From Chitinophagales bacterium (GTDB taxonomy: Bacteria > Bacteroidota > Bacteroidia > Chitinophagales > JADIYW01): a stretch of 64,000 nt of DNA. The translations under genes and the position numbers were made by a program. The notes under the pieces are model-generated. The model was not told where the DNA came from and made no database searches. It saw only the letters and a list, made by a program, of their open reading frames with translations. The stretch spans positions 75,422-139,421 of the forward strand of contig JAMLHI010000004.1 in the NCBI GenBank assembly GCA_023957235.1, written 5' to 3'. Numbering within the stretch: position 1 is the first letter of the stretch; the number at the start of each line of letters is the position of its first letter. Below are positions 35,052 through 57,353 of this stretch, in pieces.

Positions 35052-35951
35052 TTAAATTTTACGTTTGTTTCTTATTCGTCTGACTAAGAAAAACAGAATG
35101 AAAACCAAGATGAAATAAGGCCAAGAAGCCATTATCCAAAGAAGTAAATTGACTATTGATATCCAGCCATTATGTATAGATGTTTTTACTCTTTCTGTAA
35201 ATTTATCTTGAGGCTCTGGTTTGTAAACAAATGCCTTTTCCTGAAAAATATGAATATTTAATGTACTGAAAGACACTTGGTCGCTTAAATATTTTAATTG
35301 CCCTTCTTTACTTTCAATTTCTTCTTGCAGCACTCTGATACTTTCTTCAATATCAATAATATCTTTAACTGTTGAAGCCTTGGCTAGTAATTCTTTGTAT
35401 CTTTTGAGATATTCTTTTTTGTTTGTCAATCGAGTTTCAATATCAAGATATGCTTCTGTCACATCTCTTGCTTGAATACTTTTACTTTTGATTTCATCTT
35501 TTCCTTGTTCAATATTAGAAATTAGATTTTCAAAATTGTCTGACGGAATACGAATTTTGAGTTGATAAGCAATAGAGTAGTCATCATTTTGTAAATCTTC
35601 GCTTTCGTAATATGCATTATATTTTTTCAATAAGAAATTGATAGCTTTCTTACTAGTCTGGATATCTTTAGTTTTCACTGAGATATATCCATCTTTGATT
35701 ATTTTTTTCTTGTGGACAGTTACTTGCTGGCCTGTTTTTTCATCTTTATTTGAAGGGCTAGATTCTATAGCTTCATCTGTAGTAGGAGTTGATTTTACAT
35801 CTTCATTTAGTTGAACAGCATCGCTTTTTTCCATTGATATTTCTGCGTTGCTTCCTTGTGAGTAGGTGACAATATTCTCTTGATTTGAATTGCAAGAAAT
35901 ATGGATGGTCAATAGGACTATTAGAAGTATTAAAATATTTGTTTTCATCAA
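35052..35951 (-). CDS. DUF4349-like membrane-anchored lipoprotein
   Basis: Lipoprotein-type signal (LTIHISCNS), a coiled central region and a C-terminal TM helix (WPYFILVFILFFLV). Confidence 0.5.
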   Translation of the reverse strand: MMKTNILILLIVLLTIHISCNSNQENIVTYSQGSNAEISMEKSDAVQLNEDVKSTPTTDEAIESSPSNKDEKTGQQVTVHKKKIIKDGYISVKTKDIQTSKKAINFLLKKYNAYYESEDLQNDDYSIAYQLKIRIPSDNFENLISNIEQGKDEIKSKSIQARDVTEAYLDIETRLTNKKEYLKRYKELLAKASTVKDIIDIEESIRVLQEEIESKEGQLKYLSDQVSFSTLNIHIFQEKAFVYKPEPQDKFTERVKTSIHNGWISIVNLLLWIMASWPYFILVFILFFLVRRIRNKRKI

Positions 35952-36130: not shown

Positions 36131-36868
36131 TTATATCAATAACTTGCCACTTTCTTTTTTTAGCCATTGGAGATGTTTTCTATATTCAGGCATCGCTTTT
36201 TCTACTAATGCCCAAAATCTATCGGAATGATTCATTTCAAAGCGGTGAGCTAATTCATGTAAAATGACATAATCACAGACTTCAGGAGGTACTAAGAGCA
36301 ATCTTGTGGAAAGGCTAATTGCCCCAGTGCTAGAGCAGCTTCCCCATCTAGAAGTAGTGTATCTCAATGTTATTTTATTTAAATCTGCTTGAAAATATTG
36401 CTGATTGAGTTCTTTTACCCGTTTTTGTATGTCTAATAAAAAATATCTATTTAGTCCTTTAATCAATAAATCTTTTGATTCTTGATATAAATCTTCTTGA
36501 TGATTGGATAAATGGATAGGTAAATAAAATTTAATAGTGTTTTGTGGTGAAAACCTTAATGTCAGTCTATCTCCAGCAACAAAATGTTGTTCAATTTGAT
36601 AGTTTTGACCTAAAATTTGAATGGTATTACCTGATAGAAAACTGTCTTTATGTGTCGGAGAATATAATTGTTTTTCAGAGATTGTTTTGGTTGCCCATTG
36701 GATAAGCTCTTGAGTTGATTTATCTCTTTGAGATGAGGTCATTCCCTTGGGGATACGTATAATAATTTGATTTTTCTTTAGAGCAATTCTAGCATGCTTC
36801 CTGATTTCTATTATAATTTTGACAGGTACAGGCAATTCCTGAATTTTAGCAAGCAACTTTTCGTTCAT
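36131..36868 (-). CDS. DUF45 / M48-like (YgjP-type) zinc-dependent hydrolase
   Basis: HExxH motif in VILHELAHRFEMNHSDRFW, typical of the YgjP/DUF45 family. It lies 15 nt downstream of the 710-aa paralog on the same strand. Confidence 0.75.
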   Translation of the reverse strand: MNEKLLAKIQELPVPVKIIIEIRKHARIALKKNQIIIRIPKGMTSSQRDKSTQELIQWATKTISEKQLYSPTHKDSFLSGNTIQILGQNYQIEQHFVAGDRLTLRFSPQNTIKFYLPIHLSNHQEDLYQESKDLLIKGLNRYFLLDIQKRVKELNQQYFQADLNKITLRYTTSRWGSCSSTGAISLSTRLLLVPPEVCDYVILHELAHRFEMNHSDRFWALVEKAMPEYRKHLQWLKKESGKLLI

Positions 36869-36883
36869 TCCTATTGAAGATAT

Positions 36884-39016
36884 TTAGTTGGACTCAGTTT
36901 TAATCATTTGATTATAAGCTTGTATAAATATGGCACCAAGATTTTTATGAGGTGGTACATAATCCAAAAATCTTTCATAGCTTTTGCCACTACCTTTGAG
37001 CTTGTTATCTAAGTCTTTCCATAAATTTGTCCATACCAGTTCGTTTTTATCTTTCAATACCTTGCTCATTTCCACTAATAAAGCATTATTGACAGTATAT
37101 GTTCCGATTTGTTTAGATGCTATTATTTGTGCATTTGGAGCTCTTTTGATTACCTCTGAAAGATTATGATACCCGCCACAGGAGCCTAGAAAAACAACTT
37201 TAGCATATTCTGGAATTTGACTGATTGTATTCATTGCATAATAGCTATGTCCTCTATGGACAATAATTGAAGGATGAATGTCTCCATTTTGTATTTTCTG
37301 AACCAATTTTTCTTGACCTTCTCTTTCAAAAAGCGGTTTGTTGGCATATATAGTAGTCGCTTGTTTTCCTTTTCCTTTTATGACTACAAAGTAGGTAGAA
37401 TCCTGAATCTGATATCCAGCATTTTTAAAAGATCCAATAAAAGTGCTAAAAGAAGTAAGACCATCTTCGTCGTCAAAGAAAAAATGCAATTGTGTGGTAC
37501 CTAAAGAGTCAGCAAAAGATTCTATAGCTATTTGGTCAACTGCAGGGAGCTTGTAATTTTCAAGTAAATCAACAAAATTGGAGTCTGTCTGATTGTTTCC
37601 CATTTTTTGATATAATAATTTGAGCAAAAGTCCATATAGCACTCTGCTGTCTTTGCTTAACTGAGGGAGGCAAAATTCTTCTTTGAGATAAATTTCAAAT
37701 GTTTTGAGGTAGTTGAGGTTTTCTAAGCTGCCAAAAGTATCTACAACATAAACTGCTTCAGCAATATTTCCATCATCTCCATTCAATTCAGAAACAAATT
37801 TTTTAAGGATTTCAGTAGCTTGTTCTTGAGGCATAGTAGATAGAAATGTTTCTAAGGTATTATATCCAGCACACAGCTTAATAAATGTCCTGAACTTATT
37901 AAAATTGACTTGCTCCATTAAATAATAGCCATTCAATCCTTCACTTTTCATTTTGATTAATAATCTTTCAAAAAGGCCATTAAAAGTAGAAGTAAATATT
38001 TCCTCAGGACTATAGACGATTAAGGTATATAACTCAGAGGCTCCCATTGCCTTGACATTAGCAAATCGTTTGCTTGTATCTGTCAAGTCATGTAATTCAT
38101 TGACTTTCCTCACTTCCTCAAGTGCACGAATACTCAATTCTTGTTCTATATCATATTTGCCAATTGTACTATTCTGTTGTTTGGCTTGAATAAGTGCATT
38201 AAGGTAAGTAAGTGGATATTGAGAGACACTATTCAGCAAATCGGAAGAGATGTTATTATGATAAATTAAATCAATAAAATAATAGACTTTAGACTCGTTG
38301 CCATATTTATTGTACAAGTCTATCAATATTCGAACTATACTATCTTGACTTTCAGAAATAATTGCATTGACACTGTTTTTGCTATTGAAATATTTTTTTA
38401 CTGTCATCGGTGAAACCCTAGCCACTTCTTCAATAATTTTCAAAGTATAAGTTTCAGTAGAGTATAAGTTTAAGTTTTTAAGTACTTCGCTGGGGTATAA
38501 AAGTGCTGCTTTGAGTAAAAACGGCTCCGCTTCATCATTTTCTTTATAAAAAGTTATATTATTAATAGAAGATACAATATCTCTAAGCAGATAATTTTGA
38601 AAATCATCATCTTCTTTATGTTTTAGAATACTGTAGATATTTTTAAACATTCTCTCATAGTAGTCTAAAAAGTGATAATTATTAGGAGATATTTTGCTTA
38701 AAATATTATATACCTGAAGTAAATAACCGTAGCTGATAGCACCATCAGTATTTTTATCTTCAATTATCTCTTGGATAGAATCTACTAATTGAATATAGAT
38801 ATGGCTTGCTTTTTCAGTAAGTTTTGAATCTTTAAATGTGATAATGCTATCATTAGTGCCATCAAGAATATCCAAATACTTTTGTTGTTGGTCAATTCTT
38901 TCATGAAATGCCAATCTTTGAATATTGAATTTTTCAGCCTGTCCCCATAATGTATTTTGGGACATAAACATGATGATTAAGACAAAATAGAATTTATTTA
39001 ATTTCCAAAATATCAT
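36884..39016 (-). CDS. Large secreted protein of unknown function, paralog B (710 aa)
   Basis: Signal-like N-terminus (FYFVLIIMFMSQNTLWGQA), a long helical region and a C-terminal alpha/beta-looking domain with IIVHRGHS and FLGSCGG. It aligns clearly by eye with the C-terminal ~650 aa of the upstream 1021-aa protein. The start overlaps the upstream stop by 23 nt. Confidence 0.8.
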   Translation of the reverse strand: MIFWKLNKFYFVLIIMFMSQNTLWGQAEKFNIQRLAFHERIDQQQKYLDILDGTNDSIITFKDSKLTEKASHIYIQLVDSIQEIIEDKNTDGAISYGYLLQVYNILSKISPNNYHFLDYYERMFKNIYSILKHKEDDDFQNYLLRDIVSSINNITFYKENDEAEPFLLKAALLYPSEVLKNLNLYSTETYTLKIIEEVARVSPMTVKKYFNSKNSVNAIISESQDSIVRILIDLYNKYGNESKVYYFIDLIYHNNISSDLLNSVSQYPLTYLNALIQAKQQNSTIGKYDIEQELSIRALEEVRKVNELHDLTDTSKRFANVKAMGASELYTLIVYSPEEIFTSTFNGLFERLLIKMKSEGLNGYYLMEQVNFNKFRTFIKLCAGYNTLETFLSTMPQEQATEILKKFVSELNGDDGNIAEAVYVVDTFGSLENLNYLKTFEIYLKEEFCLPQLSKDSRVLYGLLLKLLYQKMGNNQTDSNFVDLLENYKLPAVDQIAIESFADSLGTTQLHFFFDDEDGLTSFSTFIGSFKNAGYQIQDSTYFVVIKGKGKQATTIYANKPLFEREGQEKLVQKIQNGDIHPSIIVHRGHSYYAMNTISQIPEYAKVVFLGSCGGYHNLSEVIKRAPNAQIIASKQIGTYTVNNALLVEMSKVLKDKNELVWTNLWKDLDNKLKGSGKSYERFLDYVPPHKNLGAIFIQAYNQMIKTESN

Positions 39017-42000
39017 ATAATGCTCTTATTAGTATAGCTCCTGCATTTTTATGAGGAGGTATATAATCTTTAAAATATGGGTTTGAACCTACTCTTTGGT
39101 TCATTTTATTCCAAAAGTCAGACCAAACTATATCTTTCCCGCTACGAATATCATCATTGATTTGCTTAAATAAAGGATCGTTGATATACATGGTTCCGAC
39201 ATTTCTATTACAAAGAATCTGTGCGCCCGGAGCCCTATCTATTGCAATCTGTTGAACATGGTATCCTCCACAAGAGCCGTCTAAGATGAGTTTGGCAGAA
39301 GCTGGGATACGGGAGAAAGTCTTAATAGTATGTGTGCTTAATCCACGGTGAACTACAATTTGTGGGTCTAAAGCATTTTTTTTCATGTATTCGGTCATGT
39401 CAGAAATGCCTTTTTCTCCTTCTCTGGCTTTGTTGGCAAAGATATCTATCTTTTTTCCAGTTTTTGATTGAATGAGTACAAAGGTTCCTAAATCTTTTAT
39501 GCTCCATTCAATATGACTACGTTCATAGGAACGAATAAAGTTATTGTATGATCCAATACCATCTTCGTCATTATAAAAATAGTATTGTTGAACATTGGTC
39601 AATTGTTGGTTAAATAGTGAATATACGGGTAAAACATCTACCGCAGGTAAAATATATTTTTCAGCAGCATATTTTGCCCAGCCATCTTCTATTTTGGGAG
39701 AAATCAAAGTAGATAAAATCCCATAAATAGCTACTCCTTTATCCAATTTTTGAGACTCTACTCTTTCATATTCTAATTTTAGCTGCTGATGAAGCATTTG
39801 AACTATGGATGGACTATTTAAGCTGATAAAAATATCGGCAACTTGTATGGCATCATTTTCTGACAGATTTTCAAGACCACCCATTAACATTTCAATGATT
39901 TGACTCTTTTCGGTAGATGTGAATGCATTGAAAATAGTATCTAATACGTCATAATAAGCACATTTTCGTAAAAACTTTTTGTAGTTATTGAATCCCAGAC
40001 TTTTTAATAGTGGAAATATATTTTTTTGAGGAGATTTGTTAATCAGCTCTTTTAACATTTTATTGAAACTACTTTGGATAATTTCATCTTCACCATAAGT
40101 GATATAAGTATATAATTCTTCTGGGCTAAGTGTAGAAAGTTGTTCGTTGAAATAGTTGTCCGTATTTTCCGAAATATTCAAATTTCTTACAAATTTCAAA
40201 GCACTAACAGATATTGTTTCTTCAAGGGAGTATCGTCCCATGACATTGGGGTTTGCAAGTAAATGGATGATTCTCGTTGTTAGTTGACTATTGTTTTGGC
40301 AAATGCTATCAGCTTTTAAAATTGAAAGTTTATGATGATAGATATCATCTAAAAGTAGATAAGCTCTAGTATTTATTCCTGCAGTTTCATTGATTTTATA
40401 TAAGGTTTTGATGACACTGTCCTGGCTATTTTTGAACAAGTAGTTCCACGGATGAGTGGGTTGGATAATATAGTTCTTGGTCGTCAGGGGAGCTATTCTT
40501 CCTATGTTTTTAAGTGCATCAATTCCTTGCTTTTTTAATTTTATTTTATCAAGATTTCTAATGATTTCTAAAGGGTATATTTTTGAGATATATTGGAGTA
40601 GTTCGTTTGAATAAGGTTCATCAATCCATTCAGATATCTTTTCCAATGCAAAAAAGGGTGCATCTTTCCATTTGATAAGGATTTTCTCTTGGTCAGACAG
40701 ATTAAAATAATAAGTCTTGATGAAATATGCCGGAGCTTTGGGTTTGGGGAGACTTGTTTTTATTGTAGAATTAGAGCTAATATTTAGAGAAGCATTGATA
40801 CTATCCAATTGTTTAGGACTGAGTTCAGCTCTCCTTTTTTGAAGATATGTTTTCAAAGTATCTCCCCCACAAAGGATTCCCCATGTTTGTTCTAAATGAT
40901 CATGAGTTATTCTTTCTTGAAAAGCATAAATTTCTTTTAGAGGAATGCTATTCAGAAAATTTTCAGAGAGGGCTGTTTTTTGATTGGATGAAAATATCCA
41001 TTTAATAAAAGCATCCAATTCTGATGGAGAAAGCATCTTATACATAACAAAAAGAGCCTGAATTCTACTACTATCTTTTATCGTTGCAAATGACTCCATT
41101 TGCCAGTTTTCGGGAGCTGAATTTTTGAACTGCTTAATTTTTTTGATGTATTTAAATGTGATATCATTCCATTTTTGCTGTATTGCAGTTGATGCAATAA
41201 GTGGTGGATTAATGACAAGTGGCAATATATTATTGATGAGAGTAGATTCGTTATTAGACAATTGCTCAGCTTGTTCTATACTCATCTGATTTTTGGAAAT
41301 ATAGGGTAGGAGATAGTAGGGATGTTGGCTATATCTGTATTTTTTGTAGATTTCAAATAATATTTTTATATCGGGATGAGTGCTTTTAGACAATTCGGTT
41401 TTTACGAGATTATTATAATGCATAAATTGACTGAAAGTATTTGGGCTATTTAAAATCGCAGCTACTAAATCTTTAGCGTCTAAGCAGTAATCCAATTTTG
41501 AAAACTGTGCAATCAATTCCTGTGGTCTTTCTTTAGACATTTGCAAAGTAGCTTCTTCCGAAATTTCTGCTGGTAATAGTATTTTTACTGCCGAATAATA
41601 ATCTGGTAAAAGTTGATAAACCCATGATTTCATATCTATACTCTTATCATGTCCAGCCTTTAAAATAGCAAGAGCCTGAAAAAAAACATCATCATAGACA
41701 GTGCTATTATACTTTTTGAAAGTAGATACTTGTATATATGTTAGATAGCGATTGAGTAGTTGGAAATAGATATCTGATTGATAGCTTGAAGACTTGACCC
41801 ATTCTTGAATTTCATTTAAATAGTTGAAATTATCTTCTGAAAGTGCAATGCTATCCTGTTTGAATCGTTGGATATGATTGGAAATAATATCTGATTCTAT
41901 AGTGGTTGCTTTGGCAAAATCAATGGAAGAAAAGAAAGTGAAAAAGATAAAAAAATATATAGCTAATACTCGCATTAGGGCATGATATGGTGTATAAGGT

Positions 42001-42059
42001 AAAGTTAAATGTAAAATGTGAAATGTTATCCATTTGAGTTGTAAAACACTGTTAAACAA
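38994..42059 (-). CDS. Large secreted protein of unknown function, paralog A (1021 aa)
   Basis: Probable true start at Met29 (about 41975; MRVLAIYFFIFFTFFSSIDFAKA signal). The helical region appears partly duplicated internally, and the C-terminal domain carries IVVHRGLS and LDGSCGG. I recognise no family. Confidence 0.8.
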   Translation of the reverse strand: MFNSVLQLKWITFHILHLTLPYTPYHALMRVLAIYFFIFFTFFSSIDFAKATTIESDIISNHIQRFKQDSIALSEDNFNYLNEIQEWVKSSSYQSDIYFQLLNRYLTYIQVSTFKKYNSTVYDDVFFQALAILKAGHDKSIDMKSWVYQLLPDYYSAVKILLPAEISEEATLQMSKERPQELIAQFSKLDYCLDAKDLVAAILNSPNTFSQFMHYNNLVKTELSKSTHPDIKILFEIYKKYRYSQHPYYLLPYISKNQMSIEQAEQLSNNESTLINNILPLVINPPLIASTAIQQKWNDITFKYIKKIKQFKNSAPENWQMESFATIKDSSRIQALFVMYKMLSPSELDAFIKWIFSSNQKTALSENFLNSIPLKEIYAFQERITHDHLEQTWGILCGGDTLKTYLQKRRAELSPKQLDSINASLNISSNSTIKTSLPKPKAPAYFIKTYYFNLSDQEKILIKWKDAPFFALEKISEWIDEPYSNELLQYISKIYPLEIIRNLDKIKLKKQGIDALKNIGRIAPLTTKNYIIQPTHPWNYLFKNSQDSVIKTLYKINETAGINTRAYLLLDDIYHHKLSILKADSICQNNSQLTTRIIHLLANPNVMGRYSLEETISVSALKFVRNLNISENTDNYFNEQLSTLSPEELYTYITYGEDEIIQSSFNKMLKELINKSPQKNIFPLLKSLGFNNYKKFLRKCAYYDVLDTIFNAFTSTEKSQIIEMLMGGLENLSENDAIQVADIFISLNSPSIVQMLHQQLKLEYERVESQKLDKGVAIYGILSTLISPKIEDGWAKYAAEKYILPAVDVLPVYSLFNQQLTNVQQYYFYNDEDGIGSYNNFIRSYERSHIEWSIKDLGTFVLIQSKTGKKIDIFANKAREGEKGISDMTEYMKKNALDPQIVVHRGLSTHTIKTFSRIPASAKLILDGSCGGYHVQQIAIDRAPGAQILCNRNVGTMYINDPLFKQINDDIRSGKDIVWSDFWNKMNQRVGSNPYFKDYIPPHKNAGAILIRALYDILEIK

Positions 42060-42223
42060 GGAGGATTTATCTTAAAAGATTTATAATTGGATGCCTTTCC
42101 TATTTATTGTCATCAAGAAAAATTTAAATGACTGTTTTGTTCAATTTTGATATAATAGGTTTAATATTTAGAATTTCCTTTACTTAGAATCTGCAAATTG
42201 TCTTCCTATATGAACATATAATA

Positions 42224-42256
42224 AAAAACCCTTATCGAAAGGATAAGGGTTTTTTT
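42224..42256. terminator. Bidirectional intrinsic terminator after rplI
   Basis: aaaaacccttatc gaaa ggataagggttttttt: a GC-containing stem flanked by an A-tract and a T-tract. It separates the ribosomal operon from the downstream paralog operon. Confidence 0.8.
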
Positions 42257-43813: not shown

Positions 43814-44008
43814 TTGAGTTTTATGATGAACGTAGAAAAGGTAAAGAAAATGCTGCTAGACGATAGTCTTACATTGAGTGATATTGCTAAGAAGTTGAAT
43901 TATGATAGTCTTCAAGTATTGTCTTCAGAATTTAAAAAAGCGACTGGGATGACTCCGTCACGATTTAAAAGATTGAATGATGAGCCTGTGAAGGATAGCA
44001 AAAAGTAG
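43814..44008 (+). pseudogene. AraC-family fragment encoding only the second helix-turn-helix
   Basis: LTLSDIAKKLNYDSLQVLSSEFKKATGMTPSRFKRL matches the C-terminal HTH of AraC/XylS regulators. An in-frame stop lies immediately upstream (43811-43813), and there is no sensor domain or first HTH. Confidence 0.45.
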
Positions 44009-52358: not shown

Positions 52359-55358
52359 CTAATTAATCTTTGTAATTGTAATCTCCACTCTTTGATTGAG
52401 TTTTCTTCCTTGTTCTGTATTGTTATCAGAAATGTTTTGTGATTTGCCATAGCCTTTATAAGTCAATCTTTCGGGAGAGACTCCTCTTGTAATCAGATAA
52501 TCCATGACAGATTTTGCTCTTTTTGTAGAGAGTTCATTGCAGAAATTATCATCACAAAGCCCATTGGTATGACCACCAATTTCGATATTAAGTTCTTTGT
52601 TTTTGATTAGATAGACTGCCAGTTGGTTGAGATCGTCATAAGATTTTGACTGAATAAAGGAGGCATTGACAACAAAATATACATTTTTTAGAGATATTTT
52701 TTGGCCAATTTCTTTTTTTAGTACAGATAATTCATCTGCTATTGTATTGCTGTATATTGTTGTGCCTGATTGTTCTTTTATTTTTTGCAAACTATCCAAT
52801 TCTTGTTTTAGGGAATTAATATCTTTGTATTGTTGTTTTTTGAGTGTTTCTAGTTTTTTTCTTTCATTCTCTAGGTTTTCTTTTTCAAGAGCTAATTGTT
52901 CCTTTTCTATCTGCATTTGAGAGATTGCAATAGCTATTTTTTCTTTTTCACTTAATAGTTTCTGTTGTTCTCTTTGCAAACTATCATTATTGTTTTTAGT
53001 CTCTTGGTTGATTGAAGATATTTGGTTCTTTTGCTGCTCTAAAATTTTTAAACTATCTTCTAATTTTATAATTTCTTGATTCCAATCCTTTTTTTGTTCT
53101 TCAGTATTGTTAGCATAATGATTCAGCTTGGAAGTTGAAGGTAAAGTAGAAATCGAATCAGTAGATGCTTGCTTTTCAGCCACAGTTTCTAATGTATTGT
53201 TAGAGGTGTTAATATTTTGAGCTTCTTGGAGTTCTCTAAGTTTTTGCTCATAACTATTCAACTCTTTTTGTTGTTTTATATTATCAATTTGAGTGGGCTT
53301 GTAAACAATTAATGAGCTATCAGACTGCTTGGCAAGAGTTGTTTCAGGTGTTTTTGATTCATTAATTCTGATGGGTTCTTGAAGAGTCGGTGCTGGAAGA
53401 TTTTGGGCTGCCATAAGTTGTTGAAGCTTTTCTTCATAGGGAGTTAGTTTTTTATTATTTTCTTTTGCCTTAATAGGCTTTGTTTCTGACTTTTCTGGAG
53501 TTGAATTTGTCAAATTTATATTTTGGAGACTGTCAAGTTTTTGCTTGTATTCATTAGTAGTATTGCCATTACTATTAGAAGTATAAACAGTAGATGGAAC
53601 AGCAGGGATATTTAATTTAGCCCTTTCCAGTTGTCTTTTGAGATCATTGATTTTTTCATCATAAGAAGGATCGTAATTAACTGAAGGTGGAGTATATGCT
53701 GGGAAATTATTATTTGGATGGATAGGCAATGTGGTATATTGCTCCTCTAGTTTTTTTAAGTCTTCATTAATTTGTGTTTCCTTTTTGTCGATAGCTTGTT
53801 CTTCATTGGATTTCTCAATAGGGCTACCCGAATTGGGACCTTGATTTAATTGTCTTCTGAGTTCTTCAATTCTTTTATCTATATCAGAGGTTTCATTATT
53901 TTGATAAGGTTTGAGTTTGGGAATCTCAGGAATACTACTTGCAAATAATCCTTGATCTATTTTGACAGCATCAGGTCTCAATTCTCTAGGCAATGAGATT
54001 TTATATATATCACTTAAACCATAGCCACCACCTCTTTCACTAGAATAATAAGCATATTCTCCTGAAGCAGGAATGGTGTAATAAATATCCATCCCTATAG
54101 TATTGATATTCTGCCCTAGATTGACAGGTGTACTCCAGTTCTTCCAAGTATTGTCGAGTCTTCTACTCATAAACATATCAAAATCACCATATCCGGCATG
54201 TCCATTGGAAGAAAAATAGAGTGTTTTGCCGTCAGCTGCAATAAATACACTGGCTTCTGCTGCTGCTGTATTCAAGTCTGCTCCCATATTCATTGGTTCT
54301 GACCAGTTACCATCTGCATATTTAAAACTGACGTACAAATCCATATCTCCATAAGTGTCATCTCTTTCTATGGCCATCACTAATACTTTCTCGTCTAAAC
54401 TGACATGATAGCATGCAAACCGGCTTTTGTTGTACATATTGAAAATAGTCAATGGTTTAGGCTTGCTCCATGTACCATTGTTCTGTTTTTTACTGACTGC
54501 TACACCTTGTGATTCTGTTCTATAATCATATTTATTGGCGAGATACATTGTATTTCCATCTGGACTAATAGCACAAACAAAATTGTGTTCATCAGTATTT
54601 AAAGGAGAACCTACATTGCTTGCATTAGACCAAGAACCATTATATTGTCTTTGGGAAACATATATGTCGTCTTTTTTTTCGATACCTAAATTTTCAGGAG
54701 CATTTTTTCTTGCAAAATAGAGTGTAGCACCATCAGGTGATATGATTGGCAACATATCATTATAAGGTGAATTGACGCCTGAGCCTAGATTTTCAGGAAA
54801 TGGATTGATAGAATTATAAGCGATAGTATTGATTTTGGGTTCTATTTTGATTTTGTCTGGTGATATGCCGATACAGTCAATTTGAGGCTGGTTTCTAAAA
54901 TTGGCATAATTTAGTTCCAGTTTGAGACGGATGACTTTATAAGGAGTAAGAGGTATAAAATGGCTAAAAATTCTAGCGACTTGTGGATCTAAAGGACGAG
55001 GATTGGCTTGGTGATAAACGAGATATTCTTTACCACTGACATCATAGAGATAAATCTTTTCGATGGCACCAGATAATAGATTTTCTCCGATTGCGATTTG
55101 TTGAACTTGAGAAGGTCTTTCAAACTCTACTGTGATAGATGCAGTTTGTGTACCGCTTGCTGGAGCCCATGCTACAAGGCTTTTGCCATAATTTGGAAGT
55201 GCATTGGGAATACCTAATACTTGTTGAGCACTGAATTCTTTGGTGCCATATTGTGAACTAAATTTGACAACATTCTTAGCCCAATATACTTGTTGGGCTT
55301 TTGCGTAATTGCTCAATAATGATATAAGAAGTAAAAAGAGTAAATTTTTCATTTTCAA
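52359..55358 (-). CDS. OmpA-family protein with TolB-like (PD40) beta-propeller repeats and a long repetitive coiled-coil spacer
   Basis: Signal peptide, then repeated PD40-like segments (ISPDGATLYFA, ISPDGNTMYLA, IAADGKTLYFSS). The spacer is Q/N/E/K-rich. The C-terminal OmpA domain contains NELSTKRAKSVMDYL...GRKLNQRVEI. Confidence 0.85.
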   Translation of the reverse strand: MKMKNLLFLLLISLLSNYAKAQQVYWAKNVVKFSSQYGTKEFSAQQVLGIPNALPNYGKSLVAWAPASGTQTASITVEFERPSQVQQIAIGENLLSGAIEKIYLYDVSGKEYLVYHQANPRPLDPQVARIFSHFIPLTPYKVIRLKLELNYANFRNQPQIDCIGISPDKIKIEPKINTIAYNSINPFPENLGSGVNSPYNDMLPIISPDGATLYFARKNAPENLGIEKKDDIYVSQRQYNGSWSNASNVGSPLNTDEHNFVCAISPDGNTMYLANKYDYRTESQGVAVSKKQNNGTWSKPKPLTIFNMYNKSRFACYHVSLDEKVLVMAIERDDTYGDMDLYVSFKYADGNWSEPMNMGADLNTAAAEASVFIAADGKTLYFSSNGHAGYGDFDMFMSRRLDNTWKNWSTPVNLGQNINTIGMDIYYTIPASGEYAYYSSERGGGYGLSDIYKISLPRELRPDAVKIDQGLFASSIPEIPKLKPYQNNETSDIDKRIEELRRQLNQGPNSGSPIEKSNEEQAIDKKETQINEDLKKLEEQYTTLPIHPNNNFPAYTPPSVNYDPSYDEKINDLKRQLERAKLNIPAVPSTVYTSNSNGNTTNEYKQKLDSLQNINLTNSTPEKSETKPIKAKENNKKLTPYEEKLQQLMAAQNLPAPTLQEPIRINESKTPETTLAKQSDSSLIVYKPTQIDNIKQQKELNSYEQKLRELQEAQNINTSNNTLETVAEKQASTDSISTLPSTSKLNHYANNTEEQKKDWNQEIIKLEDSLKILEQQKNQISSINQETKNNNDSLQREQQKLLSEKEKIAIAISQMQIEKEQLALEKENLENERKKLETLKKQQYKDINSLKQELDSLQKIKEQSGTTIYSNTIADELSVLKKEIGQKISLKNVYFVVNASFIQSKSYDDLNQLAVYLIKNKELNIEIGGHTNGLCDDNFCNELSTKRAKSVMDYLITRGVSPERLTYKGYGKSQNISDNNTEQGRKLNQRVEITITKIN

Positions 55359-55592
55359 TGTAAATAATGAATGGCTATCTAAAACCCTACCAAATTTATT
55401 GATTTTATAGTAATAAATGTTGAATTCTGTGATTTAACACTGTTCTAATAAATGAATAACGTATTCTTGTTGGTATATTTTATACGCTGTTAAGCTAATT
55501 TCAAGTTTTAAGTATATTGTTTGACTAGCTAGTTTTCTCTTATAAAATTGGATTTGAGTAGAGCAGAAAATAAACAATTGAAAATATTTTTT

Positions 55593-55600
55593 TACTTTTG
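55593..55600 (+). promoter_or_regulatory. -7 promoter box TACTTTTG upstream of the two-component operon
   Basis: Exact TAnnTTTG match, 63 nt before the histidine kinase ATG. Confidence 0.35.
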
Positions 55601-55662
55601 AATCTACAGATGATTTGCTGACAGTCCTTTCTGTTGTCAAATTAAATTACTAAAAACACAGC

Positions 55663-56655
55663 ATGTCTCTCAATTTTTTTAAAAATCCCCGACGATATGT
55701 ATATTATTTTTTCACAGTATATATATTGATGATTTTCTTTTGGTGGTGGTTTATGATTTTCCGCAAAGACAGCCAAATGTATAGAATTAAAGAGCAGTTA
55801 TTGTACGAAAGATTTGAAAAGGATGACTCCAATATCTTTAATGAGTTGGAATTATTGACTGATTTTCATGAACGCCAAAGATGGATGATTATAGGAGAGG
55901 GTGCCACCTTTTTAATTTTAATAGTTTTAGGTATTTGGAAGTTGAGAGATTCTGTTAAGAAAGAGGTTGGATTAGTAGGTATGGAAAGAAATTTTCTTTT
56001 ATCTATTACTCATGAGCTAAAGTCTCCTTTAGTTAGTGCGCAATTGAATCTTCAGACACTCAGTTCGAGAACCCTCACTCTAGAACAACAAAAAATGTTG
56101 ATTCATAATACTGAAGAAGATATTGTCAGATTAAATGACCTTGTTGAAAAGATATTACTAGCTTCAAGGATAGGTCATAAGAATTATGCTGCCCAATTTG
56201 ACGAAGTCAATATTTCAGATTTGATTTTATCATGTTTTGATACCGTAAAGAATAGAAATATTGGACTTGATTTACAACAATTGATAGAAGAAGATATATG
56301 GGTCAATGGTGACGAGTTGATGTTGAAATCTATGGTGCTTAATTTGTTGGAAAATGCTGTTAAGTATGCGCCTAAAAATACCCCAATTGTAATTTCTTTG
56401 AGAAAGGAAGAAAATATGGCAGTATTGGATGTGGCTGATGATGGAATTAGAATCTCTGATAAAGAAAAAAGCAAAATATTTGATCGTTTTTATCGTGTAG
56501 GTAATGAGGGGAAAAGGACAACAATAGGCGTTGGTTTGGGCTTGTTTATTGTTCGGCAAGTGATATTGATGCATCATGGAAATGTCAAGATTATTGATAA
56601 AAATAAGATTGGAAAAATATTCAGAGTAGAAATCCCTTATATTGGTGCCTTATGA
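55663..56655 (+). CDS. Sensor histidine kinase
   Basis: Two N-terminal TM helices, H-box [10 protein letters not shown]-box [10 protein letters not shown] and G-boxes DDGIRI / GVGLGL. Confidence 0.9.
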
Positions 56656-57353
56656 GTCTAAACGTGAGAGTTTTATTAGTAGAAGATGAAAAAAACATTC
56701 GAGATGTTGTTAAACTCAATCTTGAATTGGAAGGATATGAAGTGATAGCCGTAGATAATGGACCAGATGCTATTAGGCGAGCAAATGATGAAGTCTTTCA
56801 TCTCATTATTTTGGATGTCATGCTTCCAGAAATGGATGGATTTGAAATCTGTGAAACAATCAGACTCAGAGATGCTTATACGCCGGTTTTATTTTTAACG
56901 GCTAAGGATAGTTATGAAGACAAAATAAAAGGATTGAAAAAGGGCGCAGATGATTATTTGACTAAGCCTTTCAAATTAGAAGAGTTGCTATTGCGTGCAA
57001 AAAATCTGATAAAGCGTAATATGATGAACTCTGAGGATAATAAGGAGAATTTTCAAACATACAGTTTTGGTGGTAATGAAATTAATTTTCTAACCTATAA
57101 AGCAAAAGGTGTAAACGGTGAACTAGATTTGACAAAAAAAGAAGTGGCTCTTTTAAAACTATTGATTGAGAGAAAGAATGAAGTCGTTTCTAGAAATGAT
57201 ATTTTAAAAATTGTTTGGGGGTATGATGTGTTTCCTTCAACACGGACAATCGATAATTTTATTCTTAATTTTAGAAAACATTTTGAAAAAGACTCTAAAA
57301 ATCCAGAACATTTTATTTCTATCCGTAGTGTAGGGTATAAGTTTTTAAATTGA
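56652..57353 (+). CDS. OmpR/PhoB-type response regulator
   Basis: Receiver domain (LLVEDE, phospho-Asp context [13 protein letters not shown]) and a C-terminal winged helix ([12 protein letters not shown]...RSVGYKF). Its ATGA start overlaps the kinase stop. Confidence 0.93.

Follow-up and report, generated by a model that had tools for sequence, protein, structure and literature searches.

The window analysed here, a stretch of 64,000 nucleotides (nt) from a Chitinophagales bacterium (GenBank assembly GCA_023957235.1, contig JAMLHI010000004.1, positions 75,422 to 139,421), contains three adjoining minus-strand genes that raise two questions: do they form one functional module, and what are the proteins encoded by the first two? 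An earlier interpretation made from the letters alone (hereafter the sequence-only reading) saw an operon of two large secreted paralogs and a DUF45/M48-type zinc hydrolase, and regarded the three as one undescribed module. We denote the long-type paralog A, the short-type paralog B, the YgjP-like/DUF45 gene C and a DUF4349 gene of the same window D. The conserved unit proves to be A and B without C, and their products belong to a large, probably exported family with an invariant set of polar residues in its C-terminal domain.

38994..41975, minus strand: gene A, long-type paralog, 993 amino acids (aa), ATG at 41975, database gene call P0288
36884..39016, minus strand: gene B, short-type paralog, 710 aa, open reading frame with 23 nt at its start shared with the end of A
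36131..36868, minus strand: gene C, YgjP-like/DUF45 metal-dependent hydrolase (PF01863), 245 aa, outside the conserved unit

All three genes, in the same direction, are present in the list of open reading frames (ORFs), and their junctions are as first read: besides the overlap of A and B, a gap of 15 nt separates B from C and one of 179 nt separates C from the next gene. It is also true in this genome that there is no room for internal promoters among A, B and C. The ORF listed for A is longer (38994..42059, minus strand, 1021 aa, from TTG at 42059). The true start is almost certainly ATG at 41975, since the database call P0288 (100% identity and coverage to A) has 993 aa, orthologs of A measure 991-1005 aa, and a classic signal peptide begins at that ATG.

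The conserved unit is the pair A-B

Gene C was correctly recognized as a hydrolase gene of the DUF45 type. Its product is a full-length member of PF01863 (YgjP-like; E = 8.3e-44; 150.5 bits where the gathering score is 26; profile positions 1-206 of 207 are covered) with the zinc motif HELAH at aa 204-208 (36245-36259). A and B are unrelated to these hydrolases. No signal peptide was found in C, which would place it in a compartment other than that of A and B.

A joint module of A, B and C, either a protease with its partner or inhibitor pair or a system for processing secreted proteins, would be consistent with the tight spacing in the window, where no terminator lies between the genes, and with the same gene order in the two closest relatives. 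These relatives are, on the other hand, the only ones to have it. Among 80 species loci whose neighbourhoods were sampled (labelled by L-numbers; L001 is the same contig as L007), YgjP adjoins the pair in L007 and L008, and the trio is absent from the remaining 78. In L001/L007, the 65%-identical relative, B and YgjP are moreover parted by two small ORFs and 447 nt. YgjP is not adjacent in the distant pair loci L002/L003, L006, L087 and L088, nor in the single-copy loci L004, L089, L090 and L091, where other neighbours are found. The lack of a signal peptide in C argues in the same direction. The sequence-only reading had itself named missing DUF45 linkage in other genomes as an outcome that would refute it and make the adjacency incidental. 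Since the linkage is not conserved, the trio is largely refuted as a functional module and appears highly improbable. Co-transcription of A, B and C may well occur in this genome as a lineage-specific trait. The two ORFs inserted in L001 (L001:10158-10546; 38 and 92 aa) have no Pfam match and are absent from the window.

The pair itself is more widely kept. All pair loci, which number 14 among the 80 species loci and come from other Chitinophagales genomes, have the long-type gene immediately before the short-type gene. The two genes of a pair overlap by 4, 8 or 23 nt or are spaced by 0-6 nt. Identity of A to the upstream genes amounts to 63.5% (L001), 36.5% (L006) and 34% (L003), and that of B to the downstream genes to 65%, 41% and 37% in the same loci. 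Judged from these sequences, long-type and short-type genes constitute separate orthologous groups, and the pair is ancient. In most other lineages a single short-type gene is found at the locus. The tight coupling of A and B suggests fixed stoichiometry of their products, which possibly form a heteromer.

Two further arrangements were observed. In a metagenome-assembled genome (MAG) of another member of Bacteroidota, the short-type gene underwent an independent tandem duplication (L064:4327-8940; 760 and 771 aa, 15-nt gap). At L089:8001-11371, a single-copy family gene is followed without gap by a GH5_mannosidase-like gene (423 aa).

A and B share one protein plan

A and B are aligned by BLASTP with E = 2e-75 and 29% identity over 535 aa (A 494-1013 versus B 173-700). 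The homology that had been claimed is thus real, whereas its length of about 650 aa has to be corrected to about 535-570 aa plus a duplicated module. All peptide pairs quoted in support of it are present and aligned in the A/B and A/A comparisons. The extra, partly duplicated helical module that had been noticed in A is likewise confirmed (A 122-426 versus B 120-412, E = 6e-8). The N-terminal half of A also aligns with its own C-terminal half (E = 4e-7), and this alignment contains the pair DIKILFEIYKKY / VIKTLYKINETA. Both proteins consist of a signal peptide, a helical solenoid of about 460 aa, part of which is duplicated in A, and a C-terminal alpha/beta domain of about 220 aa:

40782..41696, minus strand: extra N-terminal helical module of A, a diverged solenoid duplicate (A/B and A/A alignments)
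38997..39650, minus strand: C-terminal alpha/beta domain of A (alignment), with HRG at 39342-39350 and GSCGG at 39264-39278
37544..38941, minus strand: all-helical solenoid of B, about aa 26-490 (AlphaFold model m747829e591c8)
36887..37543, minus strand: C-terminal alpha/beta domain of B, aa 492-710 (domain model m58a2e51ea3a5 and conservation in 270 members)
37460-37474, 37244-37258 and 37172-37186, minus strand: motifs DDEDG, HRGHS and GSCGG of B, invariant in the family
41907..41975, minus strand: predicted signal peptide of A, MRVLAIYFFIFFTFFSSIDFAKA with cleavage before TT, from Met29 of the 1021-aa ORF (read from the sequence)
38942..39016, minus strand: predicted signal peptide of B, MIFWKLNKFYFVLIIMFMSQNTLWG with cleavage before QAE (read from the sequence; family consensus ..LL........AQ..)

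The signal-peptide-like N-termini ascribed to A and B are supported by reading of both sequences and by a heuristic scan of the family. A, B and most other members begin with a positive stretch followed by a hydrophobic core and a small residue, often with Gln next to it. Such a Gln behind the predicted cleavage site is a usual feature in Bacteroidota. Of 255 full-length members, 196 have a strong hydrophobic core, 167 show Gln behind a small residue around positions 15-36, and only five possess a lipobox. A Pfam scan of A and B revealed no Por_Secre_tail sorting domain, nor any other Pfam domain. By these N-terminal features, proteins of the A/B family are most likely located outside the cytoplasm, probably in the periplasm. 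The data as a whole support the view of A and B as diverged, exported, tandem paralogs.

The family is large and undescribed

Relatives were collected by profile searches of 1.84 billion cluster representatives (clusters at 50% identity). At least 1,265 representatives were retrieved at E <= 1e-3, 944 of them at E <= 1e-10 and 661 at E <= 1e-30. Their usual lengths are about 690-760 aa or about 980-1090 aa. For B alone, more than 148 close relatives were found, about 700 aa in length and all labelled hypothetical, which come from Chitinophagales or Saprospiraceae MAGs. When one genome per species was scanned, relatives were detected in at least 533 species genomes. Cultured carriers include Chitinophaga pinensis, C. 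japonensis, C. terrae, C. rupis, C. costaii, Sediminibacterium, Parasediminibacterium and Pinibacter. RefSeq and UniProt names are all hypothetical or uncharacterised (e.g. WP_012788900.1 of C. pinensis DSM 2588), and those of other source databases are hypothetical or spurious. No paper mentioning the C. pinensis accessions of the family was found in the literature. The family is large and undescribed and occurs mainly in Chitinophagales.

Besides members of usual length, a few giant relatives of 1,500-7,400 aa exist: P0256 (7,391 aa), P0224, P0203, P0154 (L092:6001-11445) and P0211. Each has a single copy of the C-terminal domain in the middle of the protein. The giants possess signal peptides and long arrays of helical repeats (..PYAQxVIExAAxxxPxxAL..), and the 7,391-aa protein contains further solenoid repeats. 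A Pfam scan of giant relatives of 1,233-2,578 aa, searched for fusions, gave unrelated domains or none.

A and B lie outside known families and folds

The sequence-only reading could assign neither protein to a characterised family, and this holds after searches of Pfam, NCBIfam, PADLOC and PDB sequences and of PDB and BFVD structures by Foldseek, all of which were negative. Curated libraries (Pfam-A 2025, NCBIfam r20, PADLOC) gave nothing but noise for A and B at E <= 0.1. When C-terminal domains of 21 members were scanned singly against Pfam at E <= 10, only scattered single matches appeared, among them a weak GATase_3 match of one member (E = 0.011). Neither phmmer nor profile searches of PDB sequences retrieved anything relevant for A or B.

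The AlphaFold2 model of B, built from a 40-sequence alignment, has a predicted local distance difference test score (pLDDT) of 88.8 and a predicted template modelling score (pTM) of 0.80. Residues 1-490 are all-helical and residues 495-710 form an alpha/beta domain, for which modelling alone gave pLDDT 91.3 and pTM 0.88. The only structures in PDB that Foldseek relates to the full-length model are HEAT/ARM solenoids (CAND1, importins), none of them significantly. CAND1 and importin-beta/Kap are the best full-length matches to the N-terminal 460 aa, and giant relatives of the family repeat a comparable helical-hairpin motif (..PYAxxVIExAAxxxPxxAL..). However, these matches have E >= 0.014 and template modelling (TM) scores below 0.25, and A and B lack any Pfam HEAT, ARM or TPR match. 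Slt70 (1qte, 1sly) also occurs in the Foldseek list. Slt70 is periplasmic and combines a large alpha-superhelix, which holds a polymeric envelope substrate, with a small catalytic domain, a plan similar to the one proposed for A and B. The match is non-significant (E ~0.3-0.7) and concerns the helical part only; moreover, the two small domains are unrelated, that of Slt70 being lysozyme-like and that of the family alpha/beta.

For the C-terminal domain, Ras-like GTPases are the top Foldseek matches in PDB and BFVD, with TM scores of 0.3-0.46 and root mean square deviations of 5-9 A. One viral small GTPase in BFVD reached 8.7e-4. The likeness to the Ras-like fold (Arl2, MglA, Rab6, and G domains of FeoB and EF-Tu) lies in a three-layer alpha/beta/alpha sandwich whose first helix is followed by a beta-hairpin. 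E-values are only ~1e-3 to 1e-2, and the family has DDEDGLTS in place of the P-loop. The family alignment contains none of the motifs G1 (P-loop, GxxxxGK[ST]), G3 (DxxG) and G4 (NKxD), and hhalign of the domain profile with HRas gave a probability of 0.2%. In addition, the family is probably exported, to a compartment where GTP is not expected. Ras-like GTPase identity was rejected on account of the marginal fold scores and the absent G motifs.

A, B and their relatives match none of the curated families or solved folds that were compared, and both the family and its C-terminal domain are undescribed.

A conserved site in the C-terminal domain

Conservation was determined in 270 members, of which 226 are short-type and 44 long-type; residues are numbered as in B. 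Conserved at 98-100% in both types are F513, D516, D518, G519, N559, H587, R588, G589 and S591, and further G611, S612, C613, G614, G638, N643, W662, W666, Y686, P689 and N692. In short forms H590 is invariant, and in long forms it reaches 86%; A of this window has Leu at this position. In the model, conserved residues are situated at ends of consecutive beta-alpha-beta strands or in first turns of helices. D516, D518 and G519 follow strand 1 of the domain. The segment G611-S612-C613-G614-G615 connects strand 607-611 with helix 616-625 and has the form of a small-x-nucleophile-x-small turn.

In alpha/beta enzymes, active sites are usually found at the C-terminal edge of parallel sheets. As beta-alpha-beta crossovers make the strands parallel, loops with the conserved residues come to lie on one edge of the sheet. 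From the model we infer that His587, Cys613, Asp516, Asp518 and Asn559 may cluster in space. This rule for parallel sheets, together with the elbow pattern around Cys613, is the reason for regarding the C-terminal domain as putatively catalytic.

The reading that we prefer, although only tentatively, is that A and B constitute a heteromeric enzyme of novel type, exported and dependent on a thiol or a metal, and encoded by an ancient tandem pair next to which the DUF45 gene is incidental. The C-terminal domain would be the catalytic centre, where Cys613 would act as nucleophile on a strand-turn-helix elbow with His587 as base, or where the cluster of His, Cys, Asp and Asn would bind a metal. 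The solenoid would grip either a partner or an extended substrate from the envelope or periplasm. Translational coupling would ensure synthesis of A and B in fixed proportion, and the two would assemble into a heteromer outside the cytoplasm; this last step is based on the tight coupling of the two genes. YgjP would be a cytoplasmic neighbour gained only in this small clade and no part of the machine.

Several points weigh against this proposal. No known enzyme family or fold found in our searches backs the catalytic assignment, and the domain model has no Foldseek match in PDB below E = 1e-3. A lone extracytoplasmic Cys need not be a nucleophile; it could bind a metal or serve a structural purpose. 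Finally, many lineages have a single copy, and a heteromer is therefore not obligatory.

The elbow form G-S-C-G-G recalls nucleophile-elbow hydrolases, such as alpha/beta hydrolases, class I glutamine amidotransferases and DJ-1/PfpI. Their structures, in which the acid and His come behind the nucleophile in sequence, are nevertheless absent among Foldseek matches of the family domain, and the family has no invariant His or acidic residue after Cys613, H690 being variable.

A divergent cysteine peptidase of clan CD (caspase, separase, CHAT-like) fused to a helical repeat was the initial idea about the C-terminal domain. A hydrophobic strand with His-x-Gly is followed, 26 residues on, by a hydrophobic strand with Cys (invariant VHRGH ... 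LGSCGG), an acidic cluster comes after strand 1, and the order of beta-alpha-beta elements around His and Cys agrees with clan CD. Separase, TPR-CHAT (Craspase) and Raptor resemble the family in a long helical repeat beside or before a compact alpha/beta domain, as well as in order and spacing of the post-strand His and the next-strand Cys. Raptor and Craspase, where a helical repeat accompanies a caspase-like domain, also appear far down the full-length Foldseek list. The VHRGH ... LGSCGG pattern also fits other alpha/beta enzymes. No caspase, gingipain, CHAT protein or separase is present in the top 50 PDB Foldseek matches of the domain, though such structures are plentiful in PDB, and hhalign with caspase-3 returned a probability of 0.2%. 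Pfam peptidase and CHAT models gave no match even at E = 10. The known proteins are cytoplasmic, in contrast to the probably exported A/B family, which has no detectable similarity to clan CD in fold or sequence. As Foldseek and hhalign with the domain gave nothing, the idea is unsupported and we consider it very unlikely.

More weight has to be given to a non-enzymatic role. A and B would then serve in the periplasm as adaptors, scaffolds or binding proteins, and the only task of invariant His, Cys, Asp and Asn would be to support the fold or to coordinate a structural metal. The helical solenoid, which takes up over two thirds of each protein, is a typical scaffold for protein binding, and its centre is also strongly conserved (ELYTLIVYS.EEIFTSTFNG, FRTFIK.CAGYN), and no enzyme family matches. 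Against this stands the fact that at least 20 invariant residues, polar or small, are crowded at strand ends within a single small domain. The site is kept in both paralog types at ~30% identity, which is more typical of a catalytic or ligand-binding site than of one that stabilises the fold. A purely non-enzymatic function thus appears possible but rather unlikely.

Association with phosphate-related genes in other lineages

An exported enzyme or factor that responds to phosphate under a PhoBR-like two-component system, and is tied to phosphate or polyphosphate metabolism, is suggested by gene neighbourhoods outside the window. In about 36 Chitinophagaceae loci, a PhoB-like regulator of OmpR type and a kinase of about 350 aa adjoin the family gene in divergent orientation. 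An orthologous kinase (41-43% identity over full length) adjoins it in six more loci. In five of these (L018, L020, L033, L057 and L088) the kinase gene immediately precedes the long+short pair in the same orientation; that of L064 is divergent and located beyond the response regulator. The kinase of L088 (L088:5790-6848), like those of L018, L020, L033 and L057, is an orphan of about 350 aa with no response regulator beside it.

Beyond or flanking the two-component system, a PiT, PhoU_div or Porin_O_P-like gene is found. In nine loci of Flavipsychrobacter type, the family gene is followed by PPK2 in the same orientation, 4-79 nt away. These PPK2 loci (L068:6618-7364, and also L069, L074, L078, L080, L082, L084, L085 and L043) are operon-like.

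The intergenic region shared by the regulator and the family gene contains a conserved 16-nt motif, ATTATnTAATTGTTAA, often in the form TTAACA-N9-TGTTAA, which is positioned 35-74 nt upstream of the PhoB-like regulator gene in about 36 Chitinophagaceae genomes (L023-L079). Examples are L026:4385-4400, L051:4396-4411 and L051:2537-2552 (minus strand). The motif recurs upstream of the PhoU_div-PiT operon in several loci of Sediminibacterium type. It is probably the operator of the PhoB-like regulator.

The phosphate connection is weakened by several observations. Regulator (best NCBIfam match PhoB) and kinase (best matches PnpS, WalK, PhoR) all score below NCBIfam cut-offs. Distance of the motif is fixed to the regulator gene and not to the family gene, and where a DUF1003 gene has been inserted, it is the regulator that the motif accompanies. 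Phylogenetically, the Chitinophagaceae loci do not represent independent cases. No such link exists in L087, L089, L090, L091 and L004, nor in the window, where the motif is missing upstream of A and only chance-level matches with two mismatches occur. The only two-component system of the window is 14 kb away and not orthologous (28% and 37% identity). On balance, a phosphate-responsive role of the family is unlikely. The combined scheme, in which a new class of exported enzymes with an undescribed catalytic alpha/beta fold and a Cys/His/Asp or metal centre on a solenoid would be wired, in Chitinophagales, to the PhoBR-like system and PPK2, with A and B of the window as its heteromeric form, we hold to be decidedly unlikely.

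Surroundings of the pair in the window

As had been noted, the region is otherwise a housekeeping one, with ribH, a recF-like gene, genes for an amidase and a CoA transferase, and ribosomal protein genes. The strong rplI terminator that had been reported is confirmed, and it forms the upstream boundary of the A-B(-C) unit:

42223..42255, minus strand: intrinsic terminator of the rpsF-rpsR-rplI operon, a hairpin of 14 stem pairs followed by a T-run

A sigma-70 promoter scan gave matches at chance level, and no exact match to the Bacteroidota -7 box TAnnTTTG was found upstream of A.

Gene D (35052-35951, minus strand; DUF4349 match at 3.6e-49) is the gene lying 179 nt downstream of C. The N-terminus of its product resembles that of a lipoprotein (..LLTIHISC), and a transmembrane segment lies at the C-terminus. 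As a candidate partner of A and B it was rejected, being adjacent to them in none of the 80 species loci. Upstream of rpsF, a stand-alone ORF of 64 aa (43814-44008, plus strand) consists of an AraC-type helix-turn-helix (PF00165, PF12833) and is kept at the same position in L001 (65 aa). At 52359-57353, a minus-strand gene, whose 999-aa product contains PD40 repeats and an OmpA domain, adjoins a pair of histidine kinase and OmpR-type regulator genes (55663-57353, plus strand).

Significance

The DUF45 gene, now placed outside the A/B unit, is removed as a false lead. What is left is a family conserved across a bacterial order, comprising more than 1,000 sequence clusters and present in hundreds of species (culturable Chitinophaga of soil among them), which has had no name, family model, solved relative or predicted function. 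Its C-terminal domain combines a confidently predicted fold, which has no significant neighbour in PDB, with invariant Cys, His, Asp and Asn. Uncharacterised protein families are numerous, and the newness lies in the lack of any description of the family and its C-terminal domain, not in demonstrated new biology. At about 220 aa and with cultivable hosts, the domain is a concrete and cheap target for family curation and biochemistry. If the wider scheme with the PhoBR-like system and PPK2 were true, the family would have a role in scavenging of phosphate or polyphosphate, or in phosphate-dependent remodelling of the envelope. Should the phosphate link hold, an unknown player would be added to phosphorus cycling by soil and freshwater Bacteroidota.

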